Notes: generated by a model not told the origin, from the sequence alone. 64,000 bases of DNA from Patescibacteria group bacterium (GCA_040390125.1 JAZJYZ010000001.1:374402-438401), one strand, 5' to 3'; counted from the first letter of the stretch, positions 25,878 to 45,981 are shown. Made by a program: numbers and translations.

Positions 25878-25889
25878 GAAGTTAGGTAA

Positions 25890-26147: not shown

Positions 26148-26162
26148 GAATCCCTGTTCCCC
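26148..26162 (+). repeat. att-like copy of the tRNA-Gln 3' end (gaatccctgttcccc)
   Basis: 15/15 identity to tRNA 25944-25958. Confidence 0.6.
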
Positions 26163-26189
26163 CTAGAAATCTTGGCTGTCTCCATTCCT

Positions 26190-26206
26190 GAATCCCTCTT
26201 CCTCAG
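26190..26206 (+). repeat. degenerate att-like copy (gaatccctcttcctcag)
   Basis: 15/17 identity to the tRNA 3' end. Confidence 0.45.
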
Positions 26207-26279
26207 TTAGTAGAGTTGGAGTTCTGGACGCCCCAAGAGCGTCATTTTAAATGCTATTATTTGTAGTAACTAAAGTGCT

Positions 26280-27665: not shown

Positions 27666-27666
27666 T

Positions 27667-28530: not shown

Positions 28531-28728
28531 TGTTGACTAGAGAGCTAGAAAAATTTCTTTGTTCTCAAAAATTAACGAGTTTTATTGATTAATTAAGATT
28601 CCAACTTCGTACCAAATTCCCAGTCAGTTTGAGATAGGTTCGGACTCCGAGGAGCATCCATTTTACTATTTACAAAGTTCATCCCATCTGACAGGGTTAA
28701 GAGGTGGTTTATTAGTTAAGAAAATAAA

Positions 28729-28941
28729 ATGGCAAAAACTTATCACTCAAAAGAAGAAATGATTAAACGAATGACTGAAGTTCAGAACGAACTGTCGATT
28801 TTGGCAAGTAAAGGCTCTCTCAGTGAAAATGGTTCAAGAACCGCTGACGAAGAGCTCAGGTTTCAAGAACTTTCTCAAGAACTATCTGCTCTCGATATGA
28901 CTCTTAAAGCTATGTCAGGGAACGGAGGTTCAGCCTTATAG
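28729..28941 (+). CDS. hypothetical small coiled-coil protein
   Basis: 70-aa ORF. Confidence 0.3.
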   Translation: MAKTYHSKEEMIKRMTEVQNELSILASKGSLSENGSRTADEELRFQELSQELSALDMTLKAMSGNGGSAL

Positions 28942-28942
28942 T

Positions 28943-29158
28943 ATGCGGAAGAATACATTTCTAATCATAATTGGCGTTATAATTGTTGGATCGGCTTTTT
29001 ATTGGTATTCATATCGTCCGTCACACATAAGGTCTCAATGTTTAGCAGAGGGAGAACTAAATCCAACTGCGATTGGTATTTCTGATGATGCCGCTAGAAC
29101 CAAATTTATAAATGACTACTACCAAACCTGCCTTCACAGATTCGGCTTGGATAAATAA
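28943..29158 (+). CDS. hypothetical small membrane-anchored protein
   Basis: 71 aa; N-terminal TM; 1-bp gap from the previous ORF. Confidence 0.3.
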   Translation: MRKNTFLIIIGVIIVGSAFYWYSYRPSHIRSQCLAEGELNPTAIGISDDAARTKFINDYYQTCLHRFGLDK

Positions 29159-29235
29159 TCATTTCGAGGAGCGTCAAAATATTAATCTTAAAAGCATCAG
29201 GGAGGGCTTGTGTGGGACTCGGTGGAGAATTATCT

Positions 29236-29253
29236 GAATCCCTGTTCCCCAGC
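29236..29253 (+). repeat. att-like copy of the tRNA-Gln 3' end (gaatccctgttccccagc)
   Basis: 18/18 identity to tRNA 25944-25961. Confidence 0.7.
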
Positions 29254-29368
29254 TGATTTTTAGGCGTAAAAATCATGTCGAAATTAGCAAATTTCGACCA
29301 GGTGGTTTTTGACATAGGTTCCCCCGCCCGAGACCCATGAATCAAGGTTTGACAAGAGAGTATCTGAA

Positions 29369-30340
29369 TTGTACGGTGAAAGAATTATGGTAGGCGAATC
29401 GTCTAAGGAAACCCGCTCCAAAGTCAGCCTGACGGGAATGGAAGATTGGAAGTGGACTGAGGCGGACGTTGATCACTGGTCTCGAGAGCAAAAACCCAAG
29501 CGCTCGTATCAGGACGAAGTTGTTGACAGAGTCTTAGAGCTGAGGGGCAGATTCGAAGTTCAGCAATACGGAGCACTCTCTCAGGATCCAAAGCGTTACC
29601 CACTCTACGTTTTAAGATCTCCAAATTTTTCTCCCGACAAAAAAACGATTCTGATCACGGGTGGTGTACACGGTTATGAGACCAGCGGTGTTCAGGGTGC
29701 GCTCGGATTTCTCGAGCGTGCGGCTGGACAGTTTGACGGAAAGTTTAATTTTGTGTGCGTGCCTTGTATCAGTCCCTGGGCGTACGAGACGATTAATCGT
29801 TGGAATGCGCAGGCATTTGACCCGAATCGTTGGTTCCGTGACGGGAGTCCGGTTGAGGAGTGTCAGCTTTTCTTGCGTGCGATGAAGGACGTCAAGCCCT
29901 TTGCGCATTTTGATCTTCACGAGACGACCGACACCGACAACAGCGTTTTCCGACCAGCGAAAGGCGAGCGGGATGGAAAGGTCGAGGAGTGGTCAGAGAT
30001 TCCCGACGGATTTTATGCCGTTGGCGATAGCAAGAATCCGCAGGCAGGTTTTCAGAAAGCTATCATCGAGTCGGTTAGGAAGGTAACCCACATCGCCAAA
30101 GCTGATGAAAATGGGAACATTATCGGAACTCCGCTCGAGCAAGAGGGAGTGGTCAACTATGATTTGAAGGAGCTCAATTTGTGCGCCGGCTTTTCAGACG
30201 CTGCATATACTACGACCACAGAAGTATATCCCAATAGCCCCGGGGTCACCGATGAGATCTGCATTGATGCTCAGATTGCCGCTATCGTGGGTGGCTTAAA
30301 CTATCTTTTGAAGCAGGAAGAATCCTCTGATGCACAGTGA
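29369..30340 (+). CDS. succinylglutamate desuccinylase/aspartoacylase (AstE/AspA, M14-like) family zinc hydrolase
   Basis: ITGGVHGYETSG (GGxHGxE) and HFDLHET metal-ligand motifs; 323 aa; noticeably GC-rich. Confidence 0.6.
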   Translation: MYGERIMVGESSKETRSKVSLTGMEDWKWTEADVDHWSREQKPKRSYQDEVVDRVLELRGRFEVQQYGALSQDPKRYPLYVLRSPNFSPDKKTILITGGVHGYETSGVQGALGFLERAAGQFDGKFNFVCVPCISPWAYETINRWNAQAFDPNRWFRDGSPVEECQLFLRAMKDVKPFAHFDLHETTDTDNSVFRPAKGERDGKVEEWSEIPDGFYAVGDSKNPQAGFQKAIIESVRKVTHIAKADENGNIIGTPLEQEGVVNYDLKELNLCAGFSDAAYTTTTEVYPNSPGVTDEICIDAQIAAIVGGLNYLLKQEESSDAQ

Positions 30341-30351
30341 GAGTGATGACC

Positions 30352-30369
30352 GAATCTCTGTTACCCAGC
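30352..30369 (+). repeat. degenerate att-like copy (gaatctctgttacccagc)
   Basis: 16/18 identity to the tRNA 3' end. Confidence 0.5.
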
Positions 30370-30507
30370 TGAATTGGAGTTTTTATAAAAACGAAGTTTT
30401 TCAATAAAAAGCTTCAATTCATGTCACGGACGTCCCACAAGACGCCAAGACCAGCGTGATACACGTTCCGACTCCAAGGAAGGTCACTGAGGTACAATGA
30501 CGGATAG

Positions 30508-30939
30508 ATGGAAACCTACAACTGGTACTCACAGCTTATTAAGCCGACATGGGCTCCACCTGCATGGCTTTTTGGACCAGTGTGGACAGTGCTTTATGCA
30601 ATTATTGCGGTTACGTACGGAACCATATTTTATAAAGTATTCACTAAAGAGATTCCGTGGATCGTGGCGCTTCCGTTCGCTCTCAATCTTATTTTCAATT
30701 TTGCATTTACACCAATACAATTTGGACTAAAAAATAATTTGCTTGCCTCGATAGATATTTTACTTATTGTTGGCACACTTATCTGGGCGCTCTATGCACT
30801 CTATTCTTTTGGTCTCACACTTCACATTGAGACTGGCGCTCCCACGTATGCGTGGATCATCTACGCCAATATTCCATATCTTTTGTGGGGAATTTTCGCT
30901 ACATGTTTGCAGCTCACGATTACGTATATGAACAAATAA
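30508..30939 (+). CDS. tspO: TspO/MBR family translocator protein
   Basis: KPxWxPPxWxFGPVWTxLY motif; 5 TM; 143 aa. Confidence 0.8.
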   Translation: METYNWYSQLIKPTWAPPAWLFGPVWTVLYAIIAVTYGTIFYKVFTKEIPWIVALPFALNLIFNFAFTPIQFGLKNNLLASIDILLIVGTLIWALYALYSFGLTLHIETGAPTYAWIIYANIPYLLWGIFATCLQLTITYMNK

Positions 30940-30942
30940 TCT

Positions 30943-31293
30943 ATGCGTGTATGGGATATACACCCAAAGCATTTGTGTAGAAAGCACCTACTCGCAGAAC
31001 ATCGAGAGCTTCATGGACTTTGGAATATTCTTACAAAACATAAAGGCACAGGGGGATATTCGCGCCATCCGGAGACATTGCGCTGGGTAGGAAAACAAAA
31101 AGCACTCTACAATCGGCACGAGGCATTAGTTAAGGAATTCACTCGTCGTGGCTATAAGCATCACACGCCTCTCAATAAACAGTTTGCAAAAGGGTCTGGT
31201 AGTCAGAAGGTATTTATTAACACTCTCAAAGAGCAGGAGGCAATACTTAAACAGAAGTCATGCGAATGTCTCCTTCGAGAGGTATCGAAATAG
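30943..31293 (+). CDS. pyrimidine dimer DNA glycosylase (T4 endonuclease V / DenV-like)
   Basis: HLLAEHRELHGLW and ALYNRHEALVKEFTRRGY align to T4 EndoV HLMAEYRELPRVF and [20 protein letters not shown]; 116 aa. Confidence 0.6.
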   Translation: MRVWDIHPKHLCRKHLLAEHRELHGLWNILTKHKGTGGYSRHPETLRWVGKQKALYNRHEALVKEFTRRGYKHHTPLNKQFAKGSGSQKVFINTLKEQEAILKQKSCECLLREVSK

Positions 31294-31351
31294 TTCCTGA
31301 TGTTCCAAAAGACAAAAGAGCACCTGAGTTAGGCTCAATAAATTCCACCCC

Positions 31352-31393
31352 CCCCAACAAAGCTAGACTTAGCTTATGAATGATAGAAAATCT
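31352..31393 (+). repeat. left copy of a 42-bp imperfect direct repeat (includes a truncated duplicate of the gene start ATGAATGATAGAAAATCT)
   Basis: 37/42 identity with 41727-41768. Confidence 0.7.
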
Positions 31394-31397
31394 CTCC

Positions 31398-31874
31398 TTA
31401 ACCCCGCCTTGCTGCATCAATAGCAGCGACGTCTATTTTTTGCATTGTCATCATTGCATCGAAAGCACGCTTTGCTTCGGCGCCACCAGCTGCAAGGGCT
31501 TCAGTAAGGGTGCGTGGCGTTATTTGCCACGATAGTCCCCAGCGGTCCTTGCACCATCCGCATTCACTTTCTTTGCCACCGTTTTCCACTATTGCGTTCC
31601 AGTAGCGGTCGGTTTCTTCCTGACCGTCCGTCGCAATCTGAAAGGAAAATGCCTCACTTTGTTTAAATACAGGGCCACCATTCAAGCCGATGCAGGGAAT
31701 TCCGCAGACACTGAACTCTACCGTTAGCACATCGCCTTTCTTGCCACTCGGAAAATCACTAGGCGCATAAAAGACATTAGTTACCTTACTATCAGGGAAA
31801 GTAGCGGCATAAAAGTTCGCTGCGGCTTCCGCATTCTTATCAAACCAGAGGCAAATTGTATTTTTTGGTGTCAT
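31398..31874 (-). CDS. VOC-family protein (PhnB / '3-demethylubiquinone-9 3-methyltransferase'-like, PF06983)
   Basis: CGWCKDRWGLSWQI motif; 158 aa. Confidence 0.7.
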   Translation of the reverse strand: MTPKNTICLWFDKNAEAAANFYAATFPDSKVTNVFYAPSDFPSGKKGDVLTVEFSVCGIPCIGLNGGPVFKQSEAFSFQIATDGQEETDRYWNAIVENGGKESECGWCKDRWGLSWQITPRTLTEALAAGGAEAKRAFDAMMTMQKIDVAAIDAARRG

Positions 31875-32009
31875 TTTTGTGTGCAGTATTATTTTAGTAT
31901 TTTACAGCGTTTCAGTACAATGTACAAAATAAATAAAGATGTCTCATTTTCGAAGAACCGACCGAGACGCTCATTTAGTTTGGATTCTGTGCCATGATGA
32001 GTAGTAGCT

Positions 32010-32531
32010 ATGAATAAATTCTTTCCTCTTATTGCATTGGCACTTCTCCTCATCATTGGTGGGGGAGTCTGGTATTACAATGACGCACAAAAGACTCCGT
32101 CCGTAATCGGCTGCACCATGGAAGCAAAGATTTGCCCCGATGGTTCAGCTGTTGGACGCACAGGCCCGCAATGTGAATTTTCTGCCTGTCCAGAAGCTGG
32201 AGGAGTGACATCTTATTCATCGGGTATCCGAGGAATAGTGTTAGCGGGGCCAGTGTGCCCAGTGGAGCGTAATCCTCCCGACCCAAACTGTGCTGACAGA
32301 CCAATTGAAACAAATGTTTCTGTATACAAAGCATCAGATATTACCCGTGCGCTCGTTGTAACAACAGGCGCACAGAATGGCACATTTGAGATGAAGCTAC
32401 CGGCAGGTGAGTATGTGGTGATGAGTGGCCCATATGGAGTACCGCTTCCACGATGTAGCGATGTTTCAGTAAGTGTCAAAGAAAATGCGTATACGAACGT
32501 ACAAGTATCGTGCGACACAGGAATACGGTAA
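32010..32531 (+). CDS. membrane-anchored secreted hypothetical protein (Cys-rich, beta-rich)
   Basis: 173 aa; N-terminal TM. Confidence 0.4.
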   Translation: MNKFFPLIALALLLIIGGGVWYYNDAQKTPSVIGCTMEAKICPDGSAVGRTGPQCEFSACPEAGGVTSYSSGIRGIVLAGPVCPVERNPPDPNCADRPIETNVSVYKASDITRALVVTTGAQNGTFEMKLPAGEYVVMSGPYGVPLPRCSDVSVSVKENAYTNVQVSCDTGIR

Positions 32532-32650
32532 GGCACGAGAGTTGTGATTAACTCGACGTCCCTAATTTCAATAAAATTTTTGGAAATGAGGAACGCTATA
32601 TATTGATAATAGGGGTAAGTGGCCGATAGTGTTACCCTACCCTTACTTTC

Positions 32651-33091
32651 ATGGCTATCATACAACCGACCCCAGTGAACGGGTTTTATAGAATTTTGCG
32701 TTGGTGCATAGGAATACCTGTTGTGTATCTTATGCTGGTACCTATCGTGATTGCCGATATTTTTTTGGAAATCTACCACCATGTAGCATTCCCCATGTTT
32801 GGTATTAAAAAAGTCAATCGACATGAATATATTCGCATACGGGATCGGGCAGAACTCTCGTACCTTACCTGGTATGAGAAATTAAATTGTGCCTATTGTG
32901 GTTATGTGAACGGCTGGCTTCATTACGCATCAGTTATTGCAGGACGTACGGAAAATTACTTTTGCGCAGTGGCACACCTTGAAACACGAGGATACGTTCC
33001 TTCAGAACACGAAAAATCATTTGTTAAGTATGGCGATGAGGCCGCACTCCGTCGTCGTTATGCACGCCACGAGGAAGATTTTGGTGGATGA
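32651..33091 (+). CDS. hypothetical membrane protein with CxxC
   Basis: 146 aa; preferred over the antisense 203-aa ORF. Confidence 0.35.
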   Translation: MAIIQPTPVNGFYRILRWCIGIPVVYLMLVPIVIADIFLEIYHHVAFPMFGIKKVNRHEYIRIRDRAELSYLTWYEKLNCAYCGYVNGWLHYASVIAGRTENYFCAVAHLETRGYVPSEHEKSFVKYGDEAALRRRYARHEEDFGG

Positions 33092-33239
33092 AATAAGAAA
33101 CTGTCTGCCATCTGGTAGTTGTGACCAAATACCTACCTCAAATCAAAAATGAAATTAATGTCGTTTTTGAGTGTATTAGCTAGGGTGAGTGGGCATGGCT
33201 CCCTCACACCATGGTCATTACTTACTAAATCATACAATA

Positions 33240-33803
33240 ATGAAAAATAAATTAATGCACATATCAAAGAAGTCTCGAATGATTGCAGCAACAGCTTTTG
33301 CTCTTGGACTTGCAGTAGTTGGAGGAAACTTCGCGTACGCTAATACTGTTTCGACTGGAGACAAGCACAATCCGATGAGTTCTCTTGTGTCTGCTATTGC
33401 AACCAAGTTTAATCTGAACTCGGCAGAGGTGCAGACTGTCGTTGACGATGTCATGAAGACAGAACGCACCACGCACAGGCTTCAGATGCAGACAAATCAA
33501 GCAACCAGGCTTGCTAAAGCAGTAACAGATGGAAAGCTTACACAAGCGCAGGCTACTCTTATTACTGCAAAAGTGGCGGAAATGAAAGCTTCAATGGAAG
33601 CGAATCGAACCGCCAATGAAAATCTGACTCAAGCGGAGCGTAAGACTAAGATGGAGGCTGAGCAGGCAAGTCTTAAAGCATGGGCAACTGCAAACAATAT
33701 TCCCATGAACTTTCTTTCTCAGTTTGGAGGAAAAGGACACGGAGGATTTGACGGACATAGGGGTCCTGGTGGAAACGGCGACGCACCAAGGCAAGGTAAT
33801 TAA
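33240..33803 (+). CDS. secreted alpha-helical hypothetical protein (start at internal Met; the track ORF begins at 33189)
   Basis: signal peptide MKNKLMHISKKSRMIAATAFALGLAVVG; Gly-rich tail. Confidence 0.4.
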   Translation: MKNKLMHISKKSRMIAATAFALGLAVVGGNFAYANTVSTGDKHNPMSSLVSAIATKFNLNSAEVQTVVDDVMKTERTTHRLQMQTNQATRLAKAVTDGKLTQAQATLITAKVAEMKASMEANRTANENLTQAERKTKMEAEQASLKAWATANNIPMNFLSQFGGKGHGGFDGHRGPGGNGDAPRQGN

Positions 33804-33916
33804 ATACTTTCTCTCGGACCTCTCTAATAACAGCTTTTCTACAAAGCTTGTACACAAAACCCCCGTGAGGGGGTTTTGTGGTGTACCTATTAGGTGTAAT
33901 AAAAGTGGGATGCCAG

Positions 33917-34495
33917 ATGTATTATGAAGTTGTGGGTCAACCAGATTCACCGATATGCGATGAACAAATCGCCAAACAGGTACAAGAAGGAGATAGAGAG
34001 GCCTTTGGCTTTTTGGTCGACCGCTATCAAAGCAAGTTGCAGCGGTATGGAACTAAGTTTCTCTCAAGGAAAGAAGACATTGAAGATATTGTGCAGGACG
34101 TTTTTATGAGTGCATATAAGAACATAAAAAGTTTTCATACCGACGAGCGTTTTAGTCCATGGATATATCGCATTGCACATAATGCCTTTGTAAATGGCTT
34201 ACGAAAAAAAGAAAGATCACCACTTATAACAATCGACTTCGACACCCTTGTGTCGCATGCAATCTACGAAGACCCAGCAGAATCAGAACGTGAACAAAAG
34301 GAAACACGAGATATGTTAGACAAGGTGCTGACACGTATCAATCCACGGTATCGAGAAATTTTAGTTCTACATTACTTTGAGGAAATGCCGTATCGGGACA
34401 TTGCGGAGGTTTTAAAGATTCCTATAGGTACCGTTGGGGTACGCATTCGACGAGCAAAGGAAGCGCTCAAAAAAATACTTACAAAAACTATATGA
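33917..34495 (+). CDS. ECF-type RNA polymerase sigma factor (sigma-70 family); the track ORF starts at 33878
   Basis: region 2 (FGFLVDRYQSKLQRYG…DIVQDVF) and region 4 HTH (MPYRDIAEVLKIPIGTVGVRIRRA). Confidence 0.85.
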   Translation: MYYEVVGQPDSPICDEQIAKQVQEGDREAFGFLVDRYQSKLQRYGTKFLSRKEDIEDIVQDVFMSAYKNIKSFHTDERFSPWIYRIAHNAFVNGLRKKERSPLITIDFDTLVSHAIYEDPAESEREQKETRDMLDKVLTRINPRYREILVLHYFEEMPYRDIAEVLKIPIGTVGVRIRRAKEALKKILTKTI

Positions 34496-35247
34496 ACCAG
34501 CAAAAAAAACCTATAAGTATTAAAGATAAAATTCTTACTGATATCAAATCAGGGGAAATTACAATGCGTCCGAAGATTTACTTTACGCTCAAAATCGCAG
34601 CTCTCATTGTAGGTGCGTTTGCAGTGGTGGCTATTTCAATCTTTATCTTCAATTTTATTCTCTTTACTATCCGTATCAGCGGTCAGGACAATCTACTTGG
34701 GTTTGGCCCTAGAGGATGGGAAGTGTTTGTACGTCATTTTCCCTGGCACTTGCTCGTGCTCGATATCGCACTAATTATTGGTTTGCAATGGCTTCTTCGA
34801 CAATTTAAATTTGGTTATAAAATTCCGATACTGTATCTCCTCCTTGGTCTTTTATGCGTTACTGCTGTTGCCGGTTTTGCACTAGAGAGAGGGACACCTT
34901 TTAATGATCGCCTGTATCAGATGCGTGGGCAGGGGCTACCTTCACCTCTCGGAGGTTTCTATGACCGGGCCAATCGACCACCCCCTCTTGGTGGCGGTGT
35001 GTGTAGATGCACTATTACCGCCATCACGGGCAATATACTCACTGTGCAGGATAGTCGGAGTACCACTACTCTTTCAGTTATCCTTCCTGCAAATGACCCA
35101 AGAGCTACGACAACATCTCTTAAGGTTGGAGATATAGTGCTCGTAGCAGGAGACCAACAAGACGGAGTAATTAACGCTTTCGGGGTACGAAAGATATCGC
35201 CTGATGACCCCGGCCCTCGCCGGTTTACTCCTCCTTCTCCTCGTTAA
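34492..35247 (+). CDS. putative anti-sigma factor / membrane protein cotranscribed with the ECF sigma
   Basis: stop/start overlap with the sigma gene; 3-4 TM; Pro/Gly-rich C-terminus. Confidence 0.35.
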   Translation: MNQQKKPISIKDKILTDIKSGEITMRPKIYFTLKIAALIVGAFAVVAISIFIFNFILFTIRISGQDNLLGFGPRGWEVFVRHFPWHLLVLDIALIIGLQWLLRQFKFGYKIPILYLLLGLLCVTAVAGFALERGTPFNDRLYQMRGQGLPSPLGGFYDRANRPPPLGGGVCRCTITAITGNILTVQDSRSTTTLSVILPANDPRATTTSLKVGDIVLVAGDQQDGVINAFGVRKISPDDPGPRRFTPPSPR

Positions 35248-35416
35248 CGCAAACTTCTCAGATGAAATAAATCCGAGGGGGTTTTTGTATTAAAGAATGT
35301 GAGTAGTAGAACAGTAGGAATTATCGCACTAGCAGTTGTAATCATCGTCACTTTGGTCTTGTTTTTCAATAGTCCGATCGAAATATAGATTTATTTTAAT
35401 TAATGTACTACGTCCG

Positions 35417-37219
35417 ATGAAAAGCATAAAAAATCTCGCTGGTGCGTACGGCACGAAACTCTTGGGCTTCAGAGTTCACTCAAAACAGTGGGCTATGAAA
35501 CATAAATTCATTAGCGTTGTTCTGCTGGTGGTTGCTCTTGGTGGCGCTTGGTGGGCATATGGACTTGCAACCACGGCAAGCGCTGAGACACGCTATGTAC
35601 TTAGTGTAGTGGGGAGAGGCACCGTCATATCCTCTGTTTCTGCAAGCGGGCAAGTATCATCTTCTAATCAATTGGATATCCAAGCCAAAGTTTCAGGGGA
35701 AATACTATCTGTTAATGTCACTCCAGGTCAAAAGGTATACGCCGGCCAGATGATAGCCATTATTGATCCGACGAGTGCCGAAAAAGCAGTACGTGATGCA
35801 GAGGCGAACCTTGAAAGTGCACAGATATCTTTAGAAAAATTACAAAAACCCGCTTCTGCACTCACTGTTACACAAGCGCAAAACGCTCTTACGAATGCAG
35901 AGGATGCGCTGGTAAAACTGTATAGCGACAGTAACACCGATGTAGTAAATGCATTTCTCGATTTGCCGGGGATCATCACAAACCTGGAGGATATTCTCAC
36001 TGGCACCGATGCGTGCGGGGGTGGGCAGTGGAACGTGGATTGTTACACCAACGCCATGAGTGGTTATGATTCAGAAGTAGAAGCGTACAGTCGCACCGCA
36101 CAGAACGATTATACTGCGGCAAAAAAAGCATACGAGTCGGCATTCGTGGACTATCAAGCACTTGGTACCACAGCAGACAATGCGTCGATAGAGAAAGCCT
36201 TGAGCAAGGCATACACCGCTGTTCAATCGGCCAGCAAAGCGGTCAAAAGTGCGAACGCCTTCATACAGCTCTATGAAGACACGCTCGAAACCCATAACCG
36301 CATCCCTGCCGCTGCGGCCGGTGCTGCACTCGATGAACTGAGCACGTTCACCGGCCAGTTGAACTCCCACTTCTCTTCGCTCCTTTCGGATACTAATTCT
36401 CTAAAACAAGACAAGCAAAACATTGTTGAAAAACAACAATCGCTTGCAGAAACTATGGCAGGCACCGACTCTCTTGACCTTCGGAGTTCAAAGTTGAGCG
36501 TGACGAAAGCACAAAATTCTTTAGAAGACGCTAAAACTACCTTGGCGGATTATTATGTGCGTGCCCCTTTTGCGGGCACCATTGCGGCGGTCGATGCGAA
36601 GAAATATGAAACAGCGAGCGGAGTACTTGCAACGCTCATCACGACTCAGAAAATCGCCGAACTTTCTCTTAACGAAGTTGATGCCGCAAAAGTTAAACTC
36701 GGTAATAAAGCAACCCTTACCTTTGACGCACTGGAAGATCTTACGTTAACGGGAGAAGTTGTAGAGATAGATACTATTGGCGCAGTTGAACAAGGAGTGG
36801 TGAGTTACAGTCTCAAGATAGCATTCGACAGTCAGGACGAGAGAATCAAGTCTGGAATGACGGTAAATTCGAGCATACAAACAGCAGTGAAGCAGGATGT
36901 GCTGACGGTGCCAACGAGTGCAGTGAAAACCCAAAACGGAGTAAGTTATGTACAAGTTTTTGACCCAGCACTCGGGGATACTGGCGGTACCCAAGGAGTC
37001 ATTTCAAAAATTCCACCACAGCAAGTCATGGTTGAAGTGGGGATCTCCGATGACACAACAGTCGAAATACTTTCTGGTCTGACGGAAGGGCAACAAATTG
37101 TAACTCGCACCGCTTCTGGTGCCGCCACCACACAATCAACAACGCAAGGCGCACCTTCTTTACTTGGTGGGGGAGCCGTGCGAACCAGTACCGGAGGAGG
37201 AGGTTTTGCGCCACGATAA
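35417..37219 (+). CDS. efflux pump periplasmic adaptor subunit (HlyD/MacA family) with extended coiled-coil hairpin; likely real start near 35495
   Basis: biotinyl/lipoyl-like half motifs (VSGEILSVNV…GQMIAIID, RAPFAGTIAAVD); long coiled coil; 600 aa. Confidence 0.8.
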   Translation: MKSIKNLAGAYGTKLLGFRVHSKQWAMKHKFISVVLLVVALGGAWWAYGLATTASAETRYVLSVVGRGTVISSVSASGQVSSSNQLDIQAKVSGEILSVNVTPGQKVYAGQMIAIIDPTSAEKAVRDAEANLESAQISLEKLQKPASALTVTQAQNALTNAEDALVKLYSDSNTDVVNAFLDLPGIITNLEDILTGTDACGGGQWNVDCYTNAMSGYDSEVEAYSRTAQNDYTAAKKAYESAFVDYQALGTTADNASIEKALSKAYTAVQSASKAVKSANAFIQLYEDTLETHNRIPAAAAGAALDELSTFTGQLNSHFSSLLSDTNSLKQDKQNIVEKQQSLAETMAGTDSLDLRSSKLSVTKAQNSLEDAKTTLADYYVRAPFAGTIAAVDAKKYETASGVLATLITTQKIAELSLNEVDAAKVKLGNKATLTFDALEDLTLTGEVVEIDTIGAVEQGVVSYSLKIAFDSQDERIKSGMTVNSSIQTAVKQDVLTVPTSAVKTQNGVSYVQVFDPALGDTGGTQGVISKIPPQQVMVEVGISDDTTVEILSGLTEGQQIVTRTASGAATTQSTTQGAPSLLGGGAVRTSTGGGGFAPR

Positions 37220-37222
37220 TTC

Positions 37223-37933
37223 ATGATTGAAATCAAAGACATTACTAAGACCTACGGCTCAGGCGATAACGCCTTCCAAGCTCTAAAAGGAGTCTCTTTC
37301 ACCATCAATGATGGAGAGTTTGTGGCGATTATGGGCCCATCGGGCTCAGGCAAATCTACTCTTATGCATATCCTTGGGTGCCTCGACACGCCAACTTCCG
37401 GTTCATATTTTCTTGACGCTAAAGATGTTTCAAAACTTAATGACGAAGAGTTGGCGGATATCCGTAAAGACAAAATTGGTTTCGTCTTTCAAGCGTTTAA
37501 CCTTCTCCCTCGCACGACAGTGCTCCGTAACGTAATGCTCCCTTTGGTGTATGCAGGTGTGGGAGAAAAAGAGAGAGAAGAGCGTGCCATCGAATCTCTA
37601 ACATCTGCCGGACTTACCTCAACACATTTTTTACACCGCTCCAACGAGCTATCCGGTGGTCAAATTCAGCGGGTTGCCATTGCTCGGGCATTGGTAAATC
37701 AACCTTCTCTTATTTTGGCAGACGAGCCTACTGGTAACCTTGATAGCAAAACTGGCGAGATAGTGCTCGGCACTTTTCAAAAACTCAACCGTGAACATGG
37801 ACGTAGCGTGATTCTTATTACTCACGAACCAGAGGTAGCCGCATACGCTGAGCGCATCATTACACTAAGAGACGGTGAAATTTTATCTGACGAAAAGAAC
37901 CGCTCTCGTAAACACGCCCATTATGACGCTTAA
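37223..37933 (+). CDS. MacB/LolD-type ABC transporter ATP-binding protein
   Basis: Walker A GPSGSGKST, signature LSGGQIQRVAIARAL, Walker B ILADEPTGNLD. Confidence 0.9.
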   Translation: MIEIKDITKTYGSGDNAFQALKGVSFTINDGEFVAIMGPSGSGKSTLMHILGCLDTPTSGSYFLDAKDVSKLNDEELADIRKDKIGFVFQAFNLLPRTTVLRNVMLPLVYAGVGEKEREERAIESLTSAGLTSTHFLHRSNELSGGQIQRVAIARALVNQPSLILADEPTGNLDSKTGEIVLGTFQKLNREHGRSVILITHEPEVAAYAERIITLRDGEILSDEKNRSRKHAHYDA

Positions 37934-39152
37934 AGACACACTTCAAGAAACCTACACTGCTCTGTCGGCGAATAAAGTTCGCTCGGGTCTCACTATCCTC
38001 GGTATAGTCATTGGCATTTCATCAGTTATAGCAATGGTGTCGATTGGCACTGGCGCTTCTAACTCTATTTCTTCAAGCATTAATTCGCTCGGCTCCAATC
38101 TTTTACAAATATCTCCAGGTGCTCAGCGTACTGCCGGAGGATTTGGTGCATCTGCCGGAAGAGGTAATGCTAAGACACTGACTCAAGCCGACGCCGACGC
38201 TATTAGCTCAAACGTCACAGGCGTAGTTGCTGTCGCAAGTGAGGTTTCTGGTCGCTATCAAATAACTGCTAAAGGCACTAACACCAATACGACGGTTAAT
38301 GGCGTTAGTAGTAATTATCCGGAGGTTCGTAATATTGAAGTAGCGGAAGGTTCATTTATAAGTGATACACAAAATAATTCAGCTTCTAAAGTGGCGGTAT
38401 TGGGGCCCACCACGCGAGACGATCTTTTTGGAGAAAATGCAGAAGGTGTCGTTGGTCAGTCGATTCGTATCAAGGGTATGGAGTTTAAGGTAATTGGTGT
38501 GACGGTTGCAAAAGGAGGCAGTGGGTTTAGTAATGCAGACGACATTATATATATCCCCACGAAGAGTGCTCAGCGTTTTCTTTCGGGCGATCAATATCTC
38601 ACCACTATAGATGTGCAAACGACAGACGCTGACGCTATGACTCAAGTACAAGCCGATGTGACCGCACTACTTTTGGACCGCCATAATATTTCTGATGCAA
38701 CACAAGCGGACTTTAGTGTATTGAACCAGGCAGATCTTCTTTCAAGTGCATCGAGTATTACTACTACTCTTACGTATCTCCTCGCCGCTATCGGTGGTAT
38801 ATCGCTTTTGGTAGGGGGTATTGGCATCATGAACATGATGCTAACTACGGTGACGGAGCGTACCCGTGAGATAGGTTTACGCAAAGCAATAGGGGCTCGA
38901 AAGAGTGACATCAGTAAACAATTTCTTATCGAAGCCATTATGCTCACTCTTATCGGTGGAACTATAGGTATTGCTCTGGGTTGGCTTATTTCCTTTGGAG
39001 TGAATCTGACCGGATTAGTCGCTACAAGTGTTTCTCTTCCTTCGATCGTTATCGCTTTTGGAGTCTCAGCTCTTATAGGCATCGTGTTTGGGTACTACCC
39101 AGCACGACGTGCCGCAGGGCTCAATCCGATTGAGGCGTTGCGATATGAGTAA
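37923..39152 (+). CDS. ABC transporter permease, MacB/FtsX-like (start chosen at the internal Met overlapping the ATPase stop)
   Basis: N-terminal TM, large periplasmic domain, C-terminal 3-TM FtsX domain. Confidence 0.85.
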   Translation: MTLKDTLQETYTALSANKVRSGLTILGIVIGISSVIAMVSIGTGASNSISSSINSLGSNLLQISPGAQRTAGGFGASAGRGNAKTLTQADADAISSNVTGVVAVASEVSGRYQITAKGTNTNTTVNGVSSNYPEVRNIEVAEGSFISDTQNNSASKVAVLGPTTRDDLFGENAEGVVGQSIRIKGMEFKVIGVTVAKGGSGFSNADDIIYIPTKSAQRFLSGDQYLTTIDVQTTDADAMTQVQADVTALLLDRHNISDATQADFSVLNQADLLSSASSITTTLTYLLAAIGGISLLVGGIGIMNMMLTTVTERTREIGLRKAIGARKSDISKQFLIEAIMLTLIGGTIGIALGWLISFGVNLTGLVATSVSLPSIVIAFGVSALIGIVFGYYPARRAAGLNPIEALRYE

Positions 39153-39178
39153 TTATTATTTATTAAATAAATATACGT

Positions 39179-39613
39179 ATGAATAAAAAAATTATTGTAG
39201 GAATAGTAGTAGTTGTACTTTTAGCAGGTAGCTTCTACGGTGGAATGGTATACGGGAAAAGCAGCACACCCGTCAGAGGTCAATTTGGTAATGGTCAATT
39301 TTCGGGTAATCCGGCCGGCATGGGAGGAATGCGAGCAGGTATGGGCGGAGGGCTCACCGCAGGCGAAATTATTTCGAAGGATGCGACGAGTGTGACTATA
39401 AAGATGCAGGACGGTAGCACCAAGATTGTTCTTATTGGTGAATCAACTCAAGTAATGAAAACCTCTGCAGGCTCAGCTGATGACCTATCAGTAGGTACAA
39501 ATGTTGCGGTTACCGGTACAACAAATAGCGACGGTAGTATCACTGGACAGTCTGTACAAATCCGCCCTGCAGGTTCAGCACCTCTCGGTGGCACTCCTCC
39601 GATAGCTCAATAG
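39179..39613 (+). CDS. membrane-anchored secreted Gly-rich hypothetical protein
   Basis: 144 aa; N-terminal TM. Confidence 0.4.
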   Translation: MNKKIIVGIVVVVLLAGSFYGGMVYGKSSTPVRGQFGNGQFSGNPAGMGGMRAGMGGGLTAGEIISKDATSVTIKMQDGSTKIVLIGESTQVMKTSAGSADDLSVGTNVAVTGTTNSDGSITGQSVQIRPAGSAPLGGTPPIAQ

Positions 39614-39633
39614 TATAAGTTAGAGAAAGTTGA

Positions 39634-39695
39634 ATCCCGATGCAATGAGCATTGGGATTTTATGAATCCTAAAGGTACACTGCCTTTAGGATTCA
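39634..39695 (+). terminator. two consecutive hairpins (the first followed by TTTT) separating the pump operon from the R-M operon
   Basis: atcccgatgc…gcattgggat TTTT, then gaatcctaaagg tacactg cctttaggattc (11-bp perfect stem). Confidence 0.5.
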
Positions 39696-39710
39696 CTGTA
39701 AGGTACAACG

Positions 39711-40682
39711 ATGAAAAAAAAGTTCTCTATTGTCTCACTTTTTGCAGGTTGTGGAGGTTTGGACCTTGGGTTTGTCGGTGGTTTTGAATTTTTAGGGAAA
39801 AAATATTCAAAAAGAAATTTTCAGATTGCTTGGGCGAATGATATTGATGAGGCTTCGTGTGTAACTTTTAAAAAGTATTTTAAACACGACATTGCTTGTG
39901 ACGATATCGGGAATATCCTAGGCGGTAAGGGTGTTCGTGGTCTTTTTGAAAAACCAATACCTAAAAAAATAGACATAGTGCTTGGTGGTTTTCCTTGTCA
40001 GGATTTTAGTCATGCGGGGAAGCGGAGTGGATTTAATAGCAAGCGGGGCTTGCTCTATCAAAGCATGGCCGAGGTTATCAAGAGAACTAAACCAACGTTG
40101 TTTATTGCCGAAAACGTTCGTGGTCTTATTACTATGAACGGCGGGCAAGCTCTAAAAAAAATTATTGAGGATTTTGAAGCACTTGGTTACCATGTTGTAT
40201 ATAAATTACTTACTGCCGCAGATTATGGTGTACCTCAGGTAAGGCAGAGAATTATTATTGTCGGAACTAGAAAAGATGTACTGCCACCTTTTGAATACCC
40301 AAAGCCGATCTTAGAGGAAAAAAATTGGATTAACCTAAAGAGGGCAATCGGTGATCTAGAGAAATTAAAGGAAGGTGAGTTACCCAATCACTTTTGGTCA
40401 AAAGCGAAAAAAAATAAAGGTCAAGGGAACACAACTGTCTCAGCAAATAAGCCAGGGCCAACGATGCGAACTGAGCACCATGGGAATATCGAATACCATT
40501 GGAATGGAAAACGAAGGTTGTCAGCAAGAGAAGCCGCACGAATTCAATCTTTTCCTGATGACTTTATTTTCTATCCATCCACTTCTGCTGCGTATAAGCA
40601 AATTGGGAATGCCGTACCCCCTGTTTTGGCGTGGCATATTGCTAGTGCGGTTGAAAAATTTTTAAATAAGCATTTAAAATAA
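39711..40682 (+). CDS. DNA (cytosine-5)-methyltransferase
   Basis: motif I LFAGCGG, motif IV GGFPCQDFS, motif VI ENV, C-terminal QIGNAVPP; AT-rich. Confidence 0.95.
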   Translation: MKKKFSIVSLFAGCGGLDLGFVGGFEFLGKKYSKRNFQIAWANDIDEASCVTFKKYFKHDIACDDIGNILGGKGVRGLFEKPIPKKIDIVLGGFPCQDFSHAGKRSGFNSKRGLLYQSMAEVIKRTKPTLFIAENVRGLITMNGGQALKKIIEDFEALGYHVVYKLLTAADYGVPQVRQRIIIVGTRKDVLPPFEYPKPILEEKNWINLKRAIGDLEKLKEGELPNHFWSKAKKNKGQGNTTVSANKPGPTMRTEHHGNIEYHWNGKRRLSAREAARIQSFPDDFIFYPSTSAAYKQIGNAVPPVLAWHIASAVEKFLNKHLK

Positions 40683-40684
40683 AC

Positions 40685-41719
40685 ATGGCTGATGCTTTGA
40701 AACCCGCTACAGAAGAAGATTTTCTACTGTTGCTTGAAAAATCAAAACAGCTAGCTTTAGCTTTTTTGAGTAATACGCAAAACATCTCGCCAACTGATTT
40801 TGAAAAAATAATTTTTGAACAGGTATGTAATGCAGCACAAGGTACTGCTTTTGAGGGAGCTGTTACTCAAACTGGAACAAATACTTTCCCAGACATTATT
40901 GTTGGTAATTTTGGCATTGAGGTAAAAATGACTATTAGTGATCATTGGACATCAACGGGGAATAGCGTTTTGGAATCTTCACGAGTTGAAGATGTTGAAA
41001 AAATTTATATCGTATTTGGAAAATTTGGCGGCGCATTAGACATTCGTTACCGACTCTATCAAGAATGTTTGCCTGAAATTAGTGTTACCCATTCTCCTCG
41101 TTACCGAATCAATATGGAGCTGCCTTCGGGGGACTCAATTTTCGATAAAATCGGTGTTGAATATGAAGCACTGCGAAACGATTCCCATTCAATTAAAAAA
41201 ATTAAGAACTACTACCGCTCACAGCTTAAAGAAGGTGAGGAATTGTGGTGGATAGATCAAGAGGAAGAAGAGAAAGCAGTGAGTCCTATAATTAAATCTT
41301 TCGCAGGCTTAAGTGAAGCGGAAAGAGAAAATTTTATTGTTGAAGTAATGATTTTGTTTCCTGAAATATTTGGTAATGCCCAAAAGAAATATGAACGGCC
41401 TGCAGCGTATCTTATTGCTGCATACAGCGCACTATGTACTAACTTACGAGACATATTCAGTGCTGGTGGACAAAGGGAGTTAGAGGTTAAAGGTACTAGT
41501 GTCATGGTGCCTCAATCGGCACATGGTTTATACGAGGCAGCTAAGGCGATTGAAAAGAGAATTCAAGAATTAGATGCTGAAACTCTTCTCTACTATTGGC
41601 GAGTCGACAAACTCCAAGACGATCGTTTAAAACAGTGGAAAGAACTGCTGAATGCTAAATGTACTCCTCTTAGTTCTGGCATAACCCTATCGGATATTTT
41701 TGATGCAGGGCTGTTATAA
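40685..41719 (+). CDS. putative Type II restriction endonuclease (PD-(D/E)xK) cognate to the upstream C5-MTase
   Basis: 3-bp gap after the MTase; FPDIIVGNFGIEVK fits PD…(E)xK; 344 aa; AT-rich. Confidence 0.5.
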   Translation: MADALKPATEEDFLLLLEKSKQLALAFLSNTQNISPTDFEKIIFEQVCNAAQGTAFEGAVTQTGTNTFPDIIVGNFGIEVKMTISDHWTSTGNSVLESSRVEDVEKIYIVFGKFGGALDIRYRLYQECLPEISVTHSPRYRINMELPSGDSIFDKIGVEYEALRNDSHSIKKIKNYYRSQLKEGEELWWIDQEEEEKAVSPIIKSFAGLSEAERENFIVEVMILFPEIFGNAQKKYERPAAYLIAAYSALCTNLRDIFSAGGQRELEVKGTSVMVPQSAHGLYEAAKAIEKRIQELDAETLLYYWRVDKLQDDRLKQWKELLNAKCTPLSSGITLSDIFDAGLL

Positions 41720-41726
41720 AAATACC

Positions 41727-41768
41727 GCCCCAACAATGCTAGAATGACCTTATGAATGATACAAAATC
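41727..41768 (+). repeat. right copy of the 42-bp direct repeat (contains the native start of the ORF at 41752)
   Basis: 37/42 identity with 31352-31393. Confidence 0.7.
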
Positions 41769-42804
41769 TTCTCTAAAAAATATTCTTCCGTGGGGTATGT
41801 CGTGGCTTACCTTTGCACTCGGCATACTCGCTATAGGTACTTTTTTTGCTGTTTCCAGTCCCGGTATAAATTACATAACTCCTATGATGGGAGGTGGAGT
41901 GGTGGGCACTACACAAGCAGTACCACCAACAGCTGCTGGTATGCCTGAAAGGGATGCCAGTGTGTCCAATGTTTCTGCACCAGATATGGGAGGGAACAGT
42001 ATGTACTACCCATACCCATACCAAAATCCTGATGTTCCTGTAGACGACACCCGAGAGTTTTTGAAAATGTATTACAACGCATACATGCAGACTCGTGATG
42101 TTCCTGCTCTTACACGCCGAGTGGAGACGACAGTGCGAGGGCATAGTGGTCGCATTGATCAGCAATCCAGCTCTTCCAAGTATGGCTCGGTGAGTTTTGC
42201 GGTTCCCCAGGCTAAGTATGATGCGTTTCGCACTGAACTTGAGAGTCTAGTGGGTAGCCGATTCATTTCTGTAAATATTTCGTCTCAAAATTTGTTATCA
42301 CAAAAGGTGAGTATAGAGGAACAACAAAAACAGGCGGACACGTCGCTTTCAGGTTATAAAACTACACGTCAAAAAATAGTGAGTGCTCATGCCAGCGCTG
42401 CGAGCTCGCTCCAGTCGAAGATAGATGCTGACCTACAACAACTCGCAACCCTTCGTGCGCAAACACAAACGCCTCAAGTGGTGGCAGAGATAGTAACTGT
42501 ATCTCAGCATCAATTGTCGTTGGAGAAGCAACTTGCAAGTGAGAATGCTTCCTACACAGTGCAATTACGAAATATAGATGAGAATATAAAGTACGCAGAA
42601 GAGTGGCAGAAGGCGGTAGACACGCAAGATCAGACACTTCTTGATAATGTAGCAACAGTGACGGGAACAGTGTCTATCCAATGGATAAGCCTTTGGGGAA
42701 TCGCACTTCTCTATCTACCTGGCTACTGGATTCCTGCTATCTTTGCCATGCTGGCAATTCTCTCCTTCATGAGAGATCGTCGGAGAGAAGGTGTACGTGC
42801 TTGA
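41752..42804 (+). CDS. DUF4349-like membrane-anchored protein (N- and C-terminal TM, central coiled coil)
   Basis: 350 aa; architecture only. Confidence 0.35.
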   Translation: MNDTKSSLKNILPWGMSWLTFALGILAIGTFFAVSSPGINYITPMMGGGVVGTTQAVPPTAAGMPERDASVSNVSAPDMGGNSMYYPYPYQNPDVPVDDTREFLKMYYNAYMQTRDVPALTRRVETTVRGHSGRIDQQSSSSKYGSVSFAVPQAKYDAFRTELESLVGSRFISVNISSQNLLSQKVSIEEQQKQADTSLSGYKTTRQKIVSAHASAASSLQSKIDADLQQLATLRAQTQTPQVVAEIVTVSQHQLSLEKQLASENASYTVQLRNIDENIKYAEEWQKAVDTQDQTLLDNVATVTGTVSIQWISLWGIALLYLPGYWIPAIFAMLAILSFMRDRRREGVRA

Positions 42805-42827
42805 TTTGGTGATCTAGGTTTGAATTC

Positions 42828-43163
42828 CTATTTCAATTCCTCAGCTTTCAAATCAAGACCTTCTTTTTCTGCGTACTTTTTCGCTTCTTTATTTATAGAA
42901 TGAGCTTGAAAAGTATGGTAGAGACTTAAAGAGGCAGTGCCTGTAGCTGCAAGTGCAAATGTAAAACCAACCGCAGTGGGAGCGGATGCGAGTGCTAAAA
43001 TGAGTAGTGAGATCGCATACATCTGCTCATTCCATGCTGTCGTGCTGTAAGTATCGGATCTACCTTGCAGTTGACCCAATTTGCGTTCTTTCATAGCTCT
43101 CAAAACAGCTATTGCTTGCTCGCCTTCGACGGTTGGGGCCTGTATTGGAGATGTTTCAGTCAT
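42828..43163 (-). CDS. hypothetical small membrane protein
   Basis: 111 aa; 2 TM. Confidence 0.3.
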   Translation of the reverse strand: MTETSPIQAPTVEGEQAIAVLRAMKERKLGQLQGRSDTYSTTAWNEQMYAISLLILALASAPTAVGFTFALAATGTASLSLYHTFQAHSINKEAKKYAEKEGLDLKAEELK

Positions 43164-43266
43164 TCTTATATGATATCACACAAATTCTATATTGTCAAGT
43201 TACGTTTCCAAATAAAGATGAACATAAAATCGCCAGAGCCCTTCGAGTTTCTTGTACAATGAATGC

Positions 43267-43602
43267 ATGGCAACTATTGAAGACTTTCATACCCTAGACA
43301 TTAGAGTCGGGAAAATCATTGAAGTGAATGATTTTCCCGAAGCAAGAAAGCCTGCGTACAAGCTGAAGATAGATTTCGGTTCAGACATTGGTATTAAAAA
43401 TTCCTCTGCACAGATAGTGGCACTCTATAGTAAAGAAGATTTGCTCGGGAGGTTAGTGCTCGCAGTAGTTAATTTTTCGCCTCGGCAGATAGGGTCTTTT
43501 ATGTCCGAAGTGTTAACGCTCGGAGTGCCTGACCAAGAGGGCAACGTCATACTCATCACACCTGACACGGGGCATGCGGTTGTAGGCGGACGCCTGTTCT
43601 GA
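43267..43602 (+). CDS. csaA: tRNA-binding protein CsaA (EMAP/Trbp111-like OB fold)
   Basis: MATIEDFHTLDIRVGKIIEV…; 111 aa from the internal Met (the track ORF begins at 43252). Confidence 0.75.
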   Translation: MATIEDFHTLDIRVGKIIEVNDFPEARKPAYKLKIDFGSDIGIKNSSAQIVALYSKEDLLGRLVLAVVNFSPRQIGSFMSEVLTLGVPDQEGNVILITPDTGHAVVGGRLF

Positions 43603-43696
43603 TCGGAGTACCGCAACGTTGCTTGTATTAAAGGTAGGTTCTCGTTGAGGATTCTTGAATATTGACTTTTCTATATTAATATGGTAATATATAAAA

Positions 43697-44197
43697 ATGG
43701 CGTTAGGTTTCGGCGAACAAATATCTCTTCCTAGAAATACCTCAAAAGTCAGGTCTGAATTACTGAATCCTAGCAAACCTCTTTCGAAGATGATCGCTGA
43801 AGCGATTGCAGAAATCGATAAGCTTTGTTTTGGAGCTACTGATGCACAATTAAGGCGCATGCAGAGAGAAATACAAGATCCGACAGCAATTGTATCGATA
43901 CTGAAAAGAGGTAAGAAAGTTGTTGGTTATTCGTATGCCTTGCCCGACCCAGCAGTTGAAGGTGCTGTATATATTCATTCGACTGCGATTCATCCTTCGG
44001 AGCAACATAAAGGTCTTGTAGGGAAACTTATGGCGAAAATGGAAGCCGAGATGCGTCGACGTGGATTCTCCTCTTTCACAAGAGATTGCATGATAGACAA
44101 CGGCTATGCCGATACAGTGCAACGGCACTATGGGGATAGGATTATAAAAATGTTTGATCGATTTTTTAATCGACGTTCTTTTCAAATTACATTGTAA
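43697..44197 (+). CDS. GNAT-like acetyltransferase (weak)
   Basis: IHPSEQHKGLVGKLM resembles the Q/RxxGxG/A motif; 166 aa. Confidence 0.3.
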   Translation: MALGFGEQISLPRNTSKVRSELLNPSKPLSKMIAEAIAEIDKLCFGATDAQLRRMQREIQDPTAIVSILKRGKKVVGYSYALPDPAVEGAVYIHSTAIHPSEQHKGLVGKLMAKMEAEMRRRGFSSFTRDCMIDNGYADTVQRHYGDRIIKMFDRFFNRRSFQITL

Positions 44198-44245
44198 GTG
44201 TAAGTAAATATACAGATTGCATCTAATAGGATAAGGTAGGTTGTT

Positions 44246-45706: not shown

Positions 45707-45714
45707 AATTCAGT

Positions 45715-45957
45715 TTGACAGTGTGTCGCTCTAGAGTACTCTGGTTTAGTATGAGACAAGGCGAATTGGAGCCTTCAAAGGCCGACATTGATCGGGCGTT
45801 TGAAGATAAAGGGGACGATATTGTGGCTGCCATGAGGAGGGATGATGTCTCTCACCAATTCTTTGGAAAGACGTGGAAATTGTTATTTCCTGGGGAAAAA
45901 ACTAAAGTGATGGAAGTGCTCAGAGCAGAAAACCAGACTCACAAGAATCTACATTGA
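45715..45957 (+). CDS. hypothetical small protein
   Basis: 80-aa ORF. Confidence 0.25.
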   Translation: MTVCRSRVLWFSMRQGELEPSKADIDRAFEDKGDDIVAAMRRDDVSHQFFGKTWKLLFPGEKTKVMEVLRAENQTHKNLH

Positions 45958-45981
45958 CCGTTAAGCTTTTCTCCACTTCCG

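Follow-up and report, generated by a model that had tools for sequence, protein, structure and literature searches.

A duplicated gene start flanking a 10.3-kb block in a Patescibacteria genome, a candidate scar of local block transposition

Integrative elements and genomic islands are flanked by duplications of their attachment (att) sites, and the target-site duplications of transposons are usually 2-15 bp in length. In transformable bacteria, DNA may also be inserted by homology-facilitated illegitimate recombination, in which a homologous anchor is combined with a junction at a microhomology and a short overlap becomes duplicated. The gene order of animal mitochondrial genomes is routinely described by a model called tandem duplication-random loss (TDRL; PMC5122201). 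Here, we discuss a pair of 45-nucleotide (nt) direct repeats that bracket a 10.3-kb block in a 64,000-nt stretch of DNA, referred to as the window, from a Patescibacteria group bacterium (GCA_040390125.1, JAZJYZ010000001.1:374402-438401). The right copy holds the predicted promoter and the start of an intact DUF4349-like gene, and the left copy is a remnant of the same gene start, located between denV, which encodes a pyrimidine-dimer DNA glycosylase, and the first gene of the block. We regard the repeat, with moderate confidence, as the scar of a local chromosomal block transposition by illegitimate recombination, i.e., a duplication that would have been followed by loss.

The two copies, at 31349-31393 and 41725-41769, were identified with a repeat finder in the 64-kb window and are identical at 39 of 45 positions; in the core of the repeat, 31352-31393 versus 41728-41769, 37 of 42 positions match. 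A preliminary description of this DNA had quoted two near-identical 42-mers, both of which are present, but the right one starts at 41728 rather than at 41727, from where just 13 of 42 bases match. A gapped alignment adds four bases rightwards past a 1-nt gap, to 31397 and 41774. The gapped local score of the pair is 61, as compared to a mean of 15 and a maximum of 23 in shuffles, and the 21-nt half that includes the start codon is matched twice in the window, where 0.01 matches are expected. In a self-BLAST of the window this pair is the sole direct repeat with E<1e-3 (E=2e-4). The six differences between the copies (87% identity) are scattered along the repeat, the longest exact run being 13 nt. 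No third copy was found in the window; a 15/16 match at 52372-52387 on the minus strand is a chance similarity, located within a ribonucleotide reductase open reading frame (ORF) and with dissimilar flanks. A longer repeat, in which the 3' end of the block's last gene would be paired with the spacer upstream of the left copy, was also rejected, as this similarity (about 10/19 with two gaps) is not significant and the local alignment stops. A 20.9-kb Logan contig from run SRR26324623 is 100% identical to the window over the compared segment 30289-41874, which spans both repeat copies. Because of this contig, and because an exact match of at most 13 nt is too short to mislead an assembler, an assembly chimera is not credible, and the repeat is real rather than a chance similarity.

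Relatives' loci, labeled L002-L019, were compared with the window; the closest are only ~82-90% identical to it. The preliminary description had proposed to examine whether denV directly precedes the DUF4349 gene in related genomes, which is the case in L006-L009. In these loci, which belong to one Paceibacteria lineage, the order is TspO-DUF2177-DUF1295-denV-(72 bp)-DUF4349-ornithine decarboxylase, and the DUF4349 and denV-like proteins are 86% and 95% identical, respectively, to those of the window. Positions 30942-31389 of the window are colinear with L006 9577-10014 at 89.7% identity, and positions 41720-42787 align to L006 9968-11036, such that 47 nt of L006 (9968-10014) align twice in the window, at 31343-31389 and at 41720-41766. 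This uninterrupted site bears out the earlier view that the left copy duplicates, in truncated form, the promoter and start region of the right-end gene. The repeat motif occurs exactly once in every relative locus, each time at the DUF4349 start, which speaks against the objection, raised in the same description, that it could be a generic promoter motif. In addition, an exact scan for a 32-nt motif in GTDB genomes and JGI metagenomes returned one genome and two metagenome contigs, each of which has the motif once, where DUF4349 begins.

The left copy (31349-31397, plus strand) comprises a vestigial DUF4349 promoter, the start codon at 31376 and the first 6-7 codons. As previously described, it encodes only a short peptide, MNDRKSLLNPALLHQ, from a relic ORF of 15 codons and a stop (31376-31423) that overlaps the stop codon of the VOC gene (31398-31400, minus strand) and runs over, and antisense to, the 3' end of that gene. 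Upstream of the left copy, and only there, is found the native intergenic spacer between denV and DUF4349 (31294-31348, plus strand), colinear with L006. In L002, L005, L006 and L010 the spacer upstream of the repeat reads GCTCAA(T/C)AAATTC(C/T), with a few further substitutions in L005, and this consensus is kept beside the left copy and not beside the right copy. The spacer sequence GCTCAATAAATTCCAC is common to the left side of the window, L002, L005 and L010 (with one mismatch in L006), and is missing at the right copy. The right copy (41725-41774, plus strand) comprises an extended -10 element (TG at 41737-41738 and TAGAAT at 41740-41745), the start codon at 41752 and the first codons of the 350-residue ORF that opens there, i.e., the start that had earlier been assigned as the real one. 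As the native spacer runs on into the left copy, and the right copy into the native ORF, the former occupies the original gene-start position and the latter is the copy joined to the intact gene. The left copy, with its short ORF, appears to be a decaying relic.

Leaderless genes in which an (extended) -10 box precedes the start codon by 6-8 nt are found in Actinobacteria and Deinococcus and form "group C" of GeneMarkS-2; a -10 box that ends at position -7 places the transcription start on the start codon. In its sequence, the DUF4349 start resembles this class in that an element of the form TGnTAnnnT ends at -7 without a Shine-Dalgarno motif, a pattern present in a quarter of the window ORFs. 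The element is TGcTAGACT in the relatives, TGcTAGAAT, i.e., nearer to consensus, in the right copy and AGcTAGACT (31361-31369) in the left copy, where the TG of the extended -10 is lost. A generic sigma-70 scan revealed no -35/-10 pair at either copy. Among 61 window ORFs, 15 have TANNNT exactly at -12 to -7 (background 1.45% per position; P ~1e-14), in eight of these 15 a TG precedes it at -15/-14, and few Shine-Dalgarno motifs are found. These data suggest that leaderless mRNAs transcribed from extended -10 promoters are widespread in this Patescibacteria genome, and the right copy is predicted to be a working promoter of this type. The repeat, which extends from -27 to +18 relative to the start codon, would then be a complete minimal expression unit, which would explain how the gene works with just 27 native bases upstream. 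A hairpin followed by a T-run (31409-31439, plus strand) is located within the VOC coding region, 16 nt past the left copy, and could terminate a transcript of ~65 nt from the relic promoter, antisense to the VOC 3' end.

Compared to the relatives, the left copy has 6-8 differences and the right one 9-11, and the two copies differ from each other at 6 of 45. The motif CTTATG is common to both copies and is found in no relative; AAAATCT, also present in both, is shared only with L005. Because each copy resembles the other more than it does any relative, and both have the derived CTTATG, a duplication within this lineage is favored over a foreign att-like sequence, on the strength of a few sites. 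Over its first 150 nt, DUF4349 is unusually far from every relative (69-75% identity), which means that a 13% difference between the copies need not indicate great age.

The genes found between the two copies are neighbors of DUF4349 also in relatives, and in the same orientation, an observation in support of the duplication-mediated rearrangement that the preliminary description had offered as its second alternative. In L005, where the DUF4349 protein is 91% identical to that of the window, the order is VOC(-)-p204-sigma-antisigma-DUF2779-ATPase-TspO-DUF2177-DUF4349, and in L002 and L003 it is pol III delta'-tRNA-Gln-p204-sigma-antisigma-cargo-TspO-DUF2177-DUF4349-VOC(-). Of the latter arrangement, only the end from TspO to VOC is covered in L004 and L011, and in L002, L003, L004 and L011 the VOC gene follows DUF4349 tail-to-tail, 12 nt apart. 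In L002 and L005, the two lineages that show both groups, p204-sigma-antisigma and TspO-DUF4349 have the same orientation, with the former 4-5 kb upstream of the latter. The two neighbors of the VOC gene in the window occur separately, the DUF4349 side in L002 and the p204 side in L005, and the left-flank genes TspO and denV (block B below) are found just upstream of DUF4349 in relatives. L015 is colinear with window positions 33207-39564 (p204, sigma, anti-sigma, membrane-fusion protein, the two MacB genes and p144) at 86% nucleotide identity over 6.4 kb, with p173 next. The same sigma-to-permease operon is present in L019, where p144 is matched in part only, and L016 has the sigma and pump genes with different small ORFs in between. 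Taken across the relatives, the gene orders resemble cyclic rotations of one gene set with the orientation kept, which is what duplication and differential loss predicts. Synteny with the relatives resumes at 24773-26162 (pol III delta'/tRNA-Gln) and from 47567 (RluA/cupin), such that the shuffling is confined to the interval from tRNA-Gln to RluA, which from this comparison appears to be a rearrangement hot spot. Four stretches have no counterpart in the relatives' loci by tblastx (26163-30458, the p146 region, the restriction-modification (R-M) pair at the right end of the block, and 42805-47566) and look like accessory insertions.

In the explanation that we favor, denV, a short spacer and DUF4349 would have been contiguous in the ancestor, and a block composed of VOC, p204, sigma and anti-sigma (and possibly MacAB) would have preceded TspO-...-DUF4349 by a few kb, in the same orientation. 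Non-site-specific illegitimate recombination would have swapped neighboring blocks from A-B-C to B-c'-A-c'C, where A is the VOC block, C is DUF4349 and c' its start. A tandem duplication of VOC...TspO-denV-c', with its right end ~17-25 nt inside DUF4349, would have created a novel junction between c' and the VOC 3' end, after which the order seen in the window would result if the first copy of A and the second copy of B were lost. The deletion of the second TspO-denV copy would have ended at position -27 relative to the DUF4349 start codon, immediately before the extended -10 element; as this endpoint spares the -10 box, DUF4349 would have stayed expressed, and the 45 nt (-27 to +18) kept at both sides would now be seen as a direct repeat. 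The -10 hexamer of the right copy would have changed from TAGACT to TAGAAT, and the R-M pair and the p173-p146 segment would have been added or moved separately. The duplication itself, the uninterrupted site in relatives, the native origin and nearby location of the block genes and the lack of recombinase genes and element ends are observed, and the order of events, the route by duplication and loss and the promoter activities are inferences. The genes are adjacent in relatives in a changed order with the orientation kept, and a vestigial copy is found at the novel junction. The similarity to TDRL is found in the reordering of neighboring blocks without inversion, the conserved gene set, the non-functional partial copy at the junction and the different rotations of the same set in related lineages. 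Unlike mitochondrial TDRL, the rearrangement is located on a bacterial chromosome, has no intermediate with both copies, includes interspersed acquired DNA and may have involved exchange between strains.

A number of observations weigh against this reconstruction. It needs one duplication and at least two deletions, whereas one insertion would by itself produce such a geometry, and further events have to be assumed for the location of p173 and for the replaced flank to the right of DUF4349. No intermediate with both full copies was found in genome, metagenome or protein searches, and tblastx against all relatives' loci revealed no relics of lost copies in the non-syntenic spacers, which is weak evidence because the closest relatives are only ~82-90% identical to the window. 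The ancestral order is derived from few lineages at that same distance, and the orthology of the sigma and anti-sigma genes of L002 and L005 seems less sure than that of p204 or VOC because their products are only 55% and 37-40% identical, respectively, to those of the window. The junction microhomologies, CT(T)AA on the left and ATAAA on the right, fit illegitimate recombination, but they are short and could possibly be due to chance. Finally, the closest relative varies along the segment: TspO is closest to L006 (88.7%), DUF4349 to L005 and L013 (87-88%), VOC to L002 (88.5%) and p204 to L015 (95% at the nucleotide level versus 86% for the operon as a whole). These mosaic affinities suggest recombination between related strains, which is at odds with the reconstruction if the events are taken as purely internal.

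The geometry also corresponds to that expected if a site-specific mobile element had been inserted in the 5' end of DUF4349, with the 45-mers as attL and attR and the element supplying a replacement promoter and start. The direct repeats flank a multi-kb block that is missing at the same site in L006-L009, where denV and DUF4349 are uninterrupted, the right copy restores the promoter and start, as one copy restores the gene end at att-flanked islands, and att-type repeats of a tRNA-Gln 3' end are found nearby, so that site-specific integration has occurred in this region. However, the att-like insertion proposed in the preliminary description fits poorly with the contents of the block. Pfam and NCBIfam searches revealed no integrase, recombinase or transposase in the block ORFs, Pfam revealed none among the 56 ORFs scanned in 641-58743, and excisionase and replication or transfer genes are likewise missing from both sets. 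A search for terminal inverted repeats at the two ends of the block gave a best score of 25, which does not exceed the maximum of 27 reached in shuffles. Instead of an identical att core, the copies match at 39/45 with scattered differences and show at best a short microhomology at the ends. The G+C content is host-like, 43-48% over the block and its flanks, and lower, 37-41%, in the R-M pair alone. Rather than foreign cargo, the block carries VOC, p204, sigma/anti-sigma and the MacAB operon, all with orthologues in relatives, and no viral contig was found with the 32-nt motif (in IMG/VR) or with relatives of the anti-sigma gene. As with a transposon target site, a short sequence is directly duplicated on both sides of the intervening DNA, but neither a transposase nor terminal inverted repeats are present and the duplication is 45 nt long. 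The 10.3-kb block is, from its sequence, apparently not a mobile element, and we consider such an insertion very unlikely.

Import from a related strain is a possible, if rather doubtful, alternative. A rearranged segment from VOC to the R-M pair, together with the DUF4349 start and possibly the whole gene, would have been anchored at its right end by homologous recombination in or near DUF4349 and joined illegitimately at its left end ~17-25 nt into the resident gene; such a Campbell-like or homology-facilitated illegitimate recombination would have duplicated the short overlap in a single step. The mosaic ancestry of adjacent segments, a geometry obtained in one event, the possible microhomology at the left junction and the R-M pair at the right junction, which is clearly acquired DNA, all agree with such an import. 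Nevertheless, the copies share the derived CTTATG, are closer to each other than to relatives and look like within-lineage paralogues; no donor-like arrangement was found in searches of relatives, genomes and metagenomes; and the donor would already have had the block abutting DUF4349 position -27, which merely shifts the question. Alternatively, the DUF4349 gene itself may have moved, a copy from -27 to about the stop codon having been transferred to a site 10 kb further downstream that is flanked by the R-M pair and p111, and the original, between denV and VOC as in L002, having been deleted from +18 to its end. Deletion of the DUF4349 body in the tail-to-tail order of L002, L003, L004 and L011 would yield the left junction of the window, and synteny with the relatives is broken on both sides of DUF4349 in the window, but the break on the 3' side is found in all relatives, i.e., this flank is variable everywhere, and an earlier swap of TspO-denV-DUF4349-VOC to upstream of p204 would still be required. 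With more events overall, this course is unlikely. An even smaller chance, on a par with that of a mobile element or slightly below it, is given to the idea that the tRNA-Gln-RluA interval is a dedicated shuffling zone, where cassettes with their own leaderless promoters (DUF4349, VOC and p173) would be moved by a trans-encoded recombination system that recognizes promoter-proximal sequences; if true, the 45-mers would be recombination sites of an integron-like cassette system in Patescibacteria without a nearby integrase. Least probable of all, to the point of being negligible, is that the repeat reflects chance similarity, a generic promoter motif or an assembly chimera. A -10 hexamer at -12 to -7 is common here, and a few similar bases near start codons are expected, but 39 of 45 matches that include the first six codons, the self-BLAST E-value and a left copy placed exactly at the relatives' gene start are difficult to reconcile with such an origin.

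The genes of the left flank are pol III delta' (24764-25804), tRNA-Gln (25890-25961), TspO/MBR (30508-30939, plus strand; PF03073, E=5e-23) and the denV-like gene (30943-31293, plus strand; PF03013, E=3e-25), the last two of which form block B; TspO is 79.6-88.7% identical at the nucleotide level to the compared relatives (L002, L005, L006 and L010). The block starts with the VOC/PhnB-like gene (31398-31874, minus strand; PF06983, E=1e-48); its left edge is 0-4 nt from the VOC stop codon, and blastn homology to the VOC genes of L002 and L005 begins at 31395-31398. This protein family is extremely conserved, with 7996 proteins at E<=1e-40, the top 120 of which are all 85-92% identical, and the gene context differs in every genome examined (besides the window, L002, L005 and L017), with three contexts among close relatives. 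As a probe for further contexts the VOC gene was uninformative, the family being so conserved that the best match has an unrelated context. A 1.25-kb segment delimited by blastn breakpoints and tblastx (31897-33149, plus strand) encodes p173 (32010-32531) and p146 (32651-33091); it is missing between VOC and p204 in L005, and L015 has p173 downstream of p144. Next is the native operon from p204 through p144 (33189-39613, plus strand), defined by Pfam and by colinearity with L015, with genes on the plus strand, assigned by Pfam, for an ECF sigma factor (33878-34495), an anti-sigma factor (34492-35247), a membrane-fusion protein (35417-37219), a MacB ATPase (37223-37933), a MacB permease (37875-39152) and the DUF5666-like p144 (39179-39613). 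The p204 protein is 81-82% identical between the window and L002/L005, and the adjoining sigma and anti-sigma factors are 55% and 37-40% identical, the MacAB pump being absent there; in L015 the two factors are 96% and 91% identical to those of the window and the pump is present. The sigma/anti-sigma pair appears to have undergone either replacement or very rapid evolution.

At the right edge of the block, the R-M pair (39711-41719, plus strand; accessory DNA) is composed of a C5-cytosine methyltransferase (39711-40682, plus strand; PF00145, E=9e-77) and a 344-residue candidate restriction enzyme (40685-41719, plus strand). The gene list of the preliminary description stands except for this last protein, which has no match in Pfam, NCBIfam or PDB; its homologues, 33-38% identical, are found on plasmids of several phyla, and one is annotated as a restriction endonuclease. 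The intact DUF4349-like gene (41752-42804, plus strand) encodes 350 amino acids, 83-92% identical to relatives. Its match to PF14257, 27.1 bits, is just below the gathering cut-off of 27.7, and most of its listed homologues (57-92% identical) have precomputed PF14257 matches. Homologues of this protein, and a 100% identical membrane-fusion protein, were found in Patescibacteria/Paceibacteria metagenome-assembled genomes; the contig from which the window was taken is ~749 kb long. On the 3' side of DUF4349 are p111 (minus strand) and genes for a tRNA-binding protein, a GNAT, an ABC-F and an HI0933-like protein, and RluA is located at 47516-48496 on the minus strand.

A separate set of repeats is found at tRNA-Gln. 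Its last 16 nt (CGAATCCCTGTTCCCC, 25943-25958) recur exactly at 26147, and with three, one and two mismatches at 26189, 29235 and 30351, respectively, where 0.26 occurrences are expected, and AGC directly follows the copies at 25943, 29235 and 30351. The region 25890-30369 resembles a series of island remnants that were integrated in tandem at tRNA-Gln. This array contains a 190-nt piece, an AT-rich pair of genes for a ParB-like protein and a Dam methyltransferase (26280-28530, G+C content 28-38%) and an AstE/AspA-like gene (29369-30340, 52%), and ends ~90 nt before the TspO homology, which is the left flank of the repeat described above; no integrase for it was found among the window ORFs scanned. 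The att repeat of tRNA-Gln bears some likeness to the 45-mer (CCCCAGCAATG versus CCCCAACAATG), which we judge to be due to chance, and no att copy is present at either junction. The 200 nt that separate tRNA-Gln from the second att-like copy (25962-26162) share 96% identity with L002 3000-3211, compared to 81-88% for neighboring protein genes, and match no Rfam family even at E<=1; this stretch is either a small RNA that lacks annotation or what remains of a conserved element. A family of short intergenic repeats with 7/14-nt periodicity (AAGCTGAAACCTGAC and variants) is found at 6519-6565, 6956-6988, 14959-14991 and 25851-25883; some of these sites immediately precede tRNA-Gln and the seryl-tRNA synthetase gene. 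A perfect palindrome at 2634-2675, with 20+20 nt and a 2-nt spacer (CTGTATAGTATAAAATCACG / CGTGATTTTATACTATACAG), is located between the acyltransferase and Vut_1 transporter genes.

The repeat is a real but fairly ordinary rearrangement scar, i.e., a known kind of event in a little-studied phylum. Current understanding is not overturned, and the value of the locus is that of a case study and of a caution for the annotation of islands in metagenome-assembled genomes, as an att-like geometry alone, with direct repeats and an empty site in a relative, is insufficient to identify a mobile element. Because the DUF4349 promoter appears to be an extended -10 box that drives a leaderless mRNA, the locus suggests that 27 nt upstream of a start codon may suffice for expression in this organism. 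It offers a base-resolved, dated example of gene-order change in the small genomes of uncultured Patescibacteria, in which native neighboring blocks would swap by illegitimate recombination and leave a promoter-plus-start relic behind.

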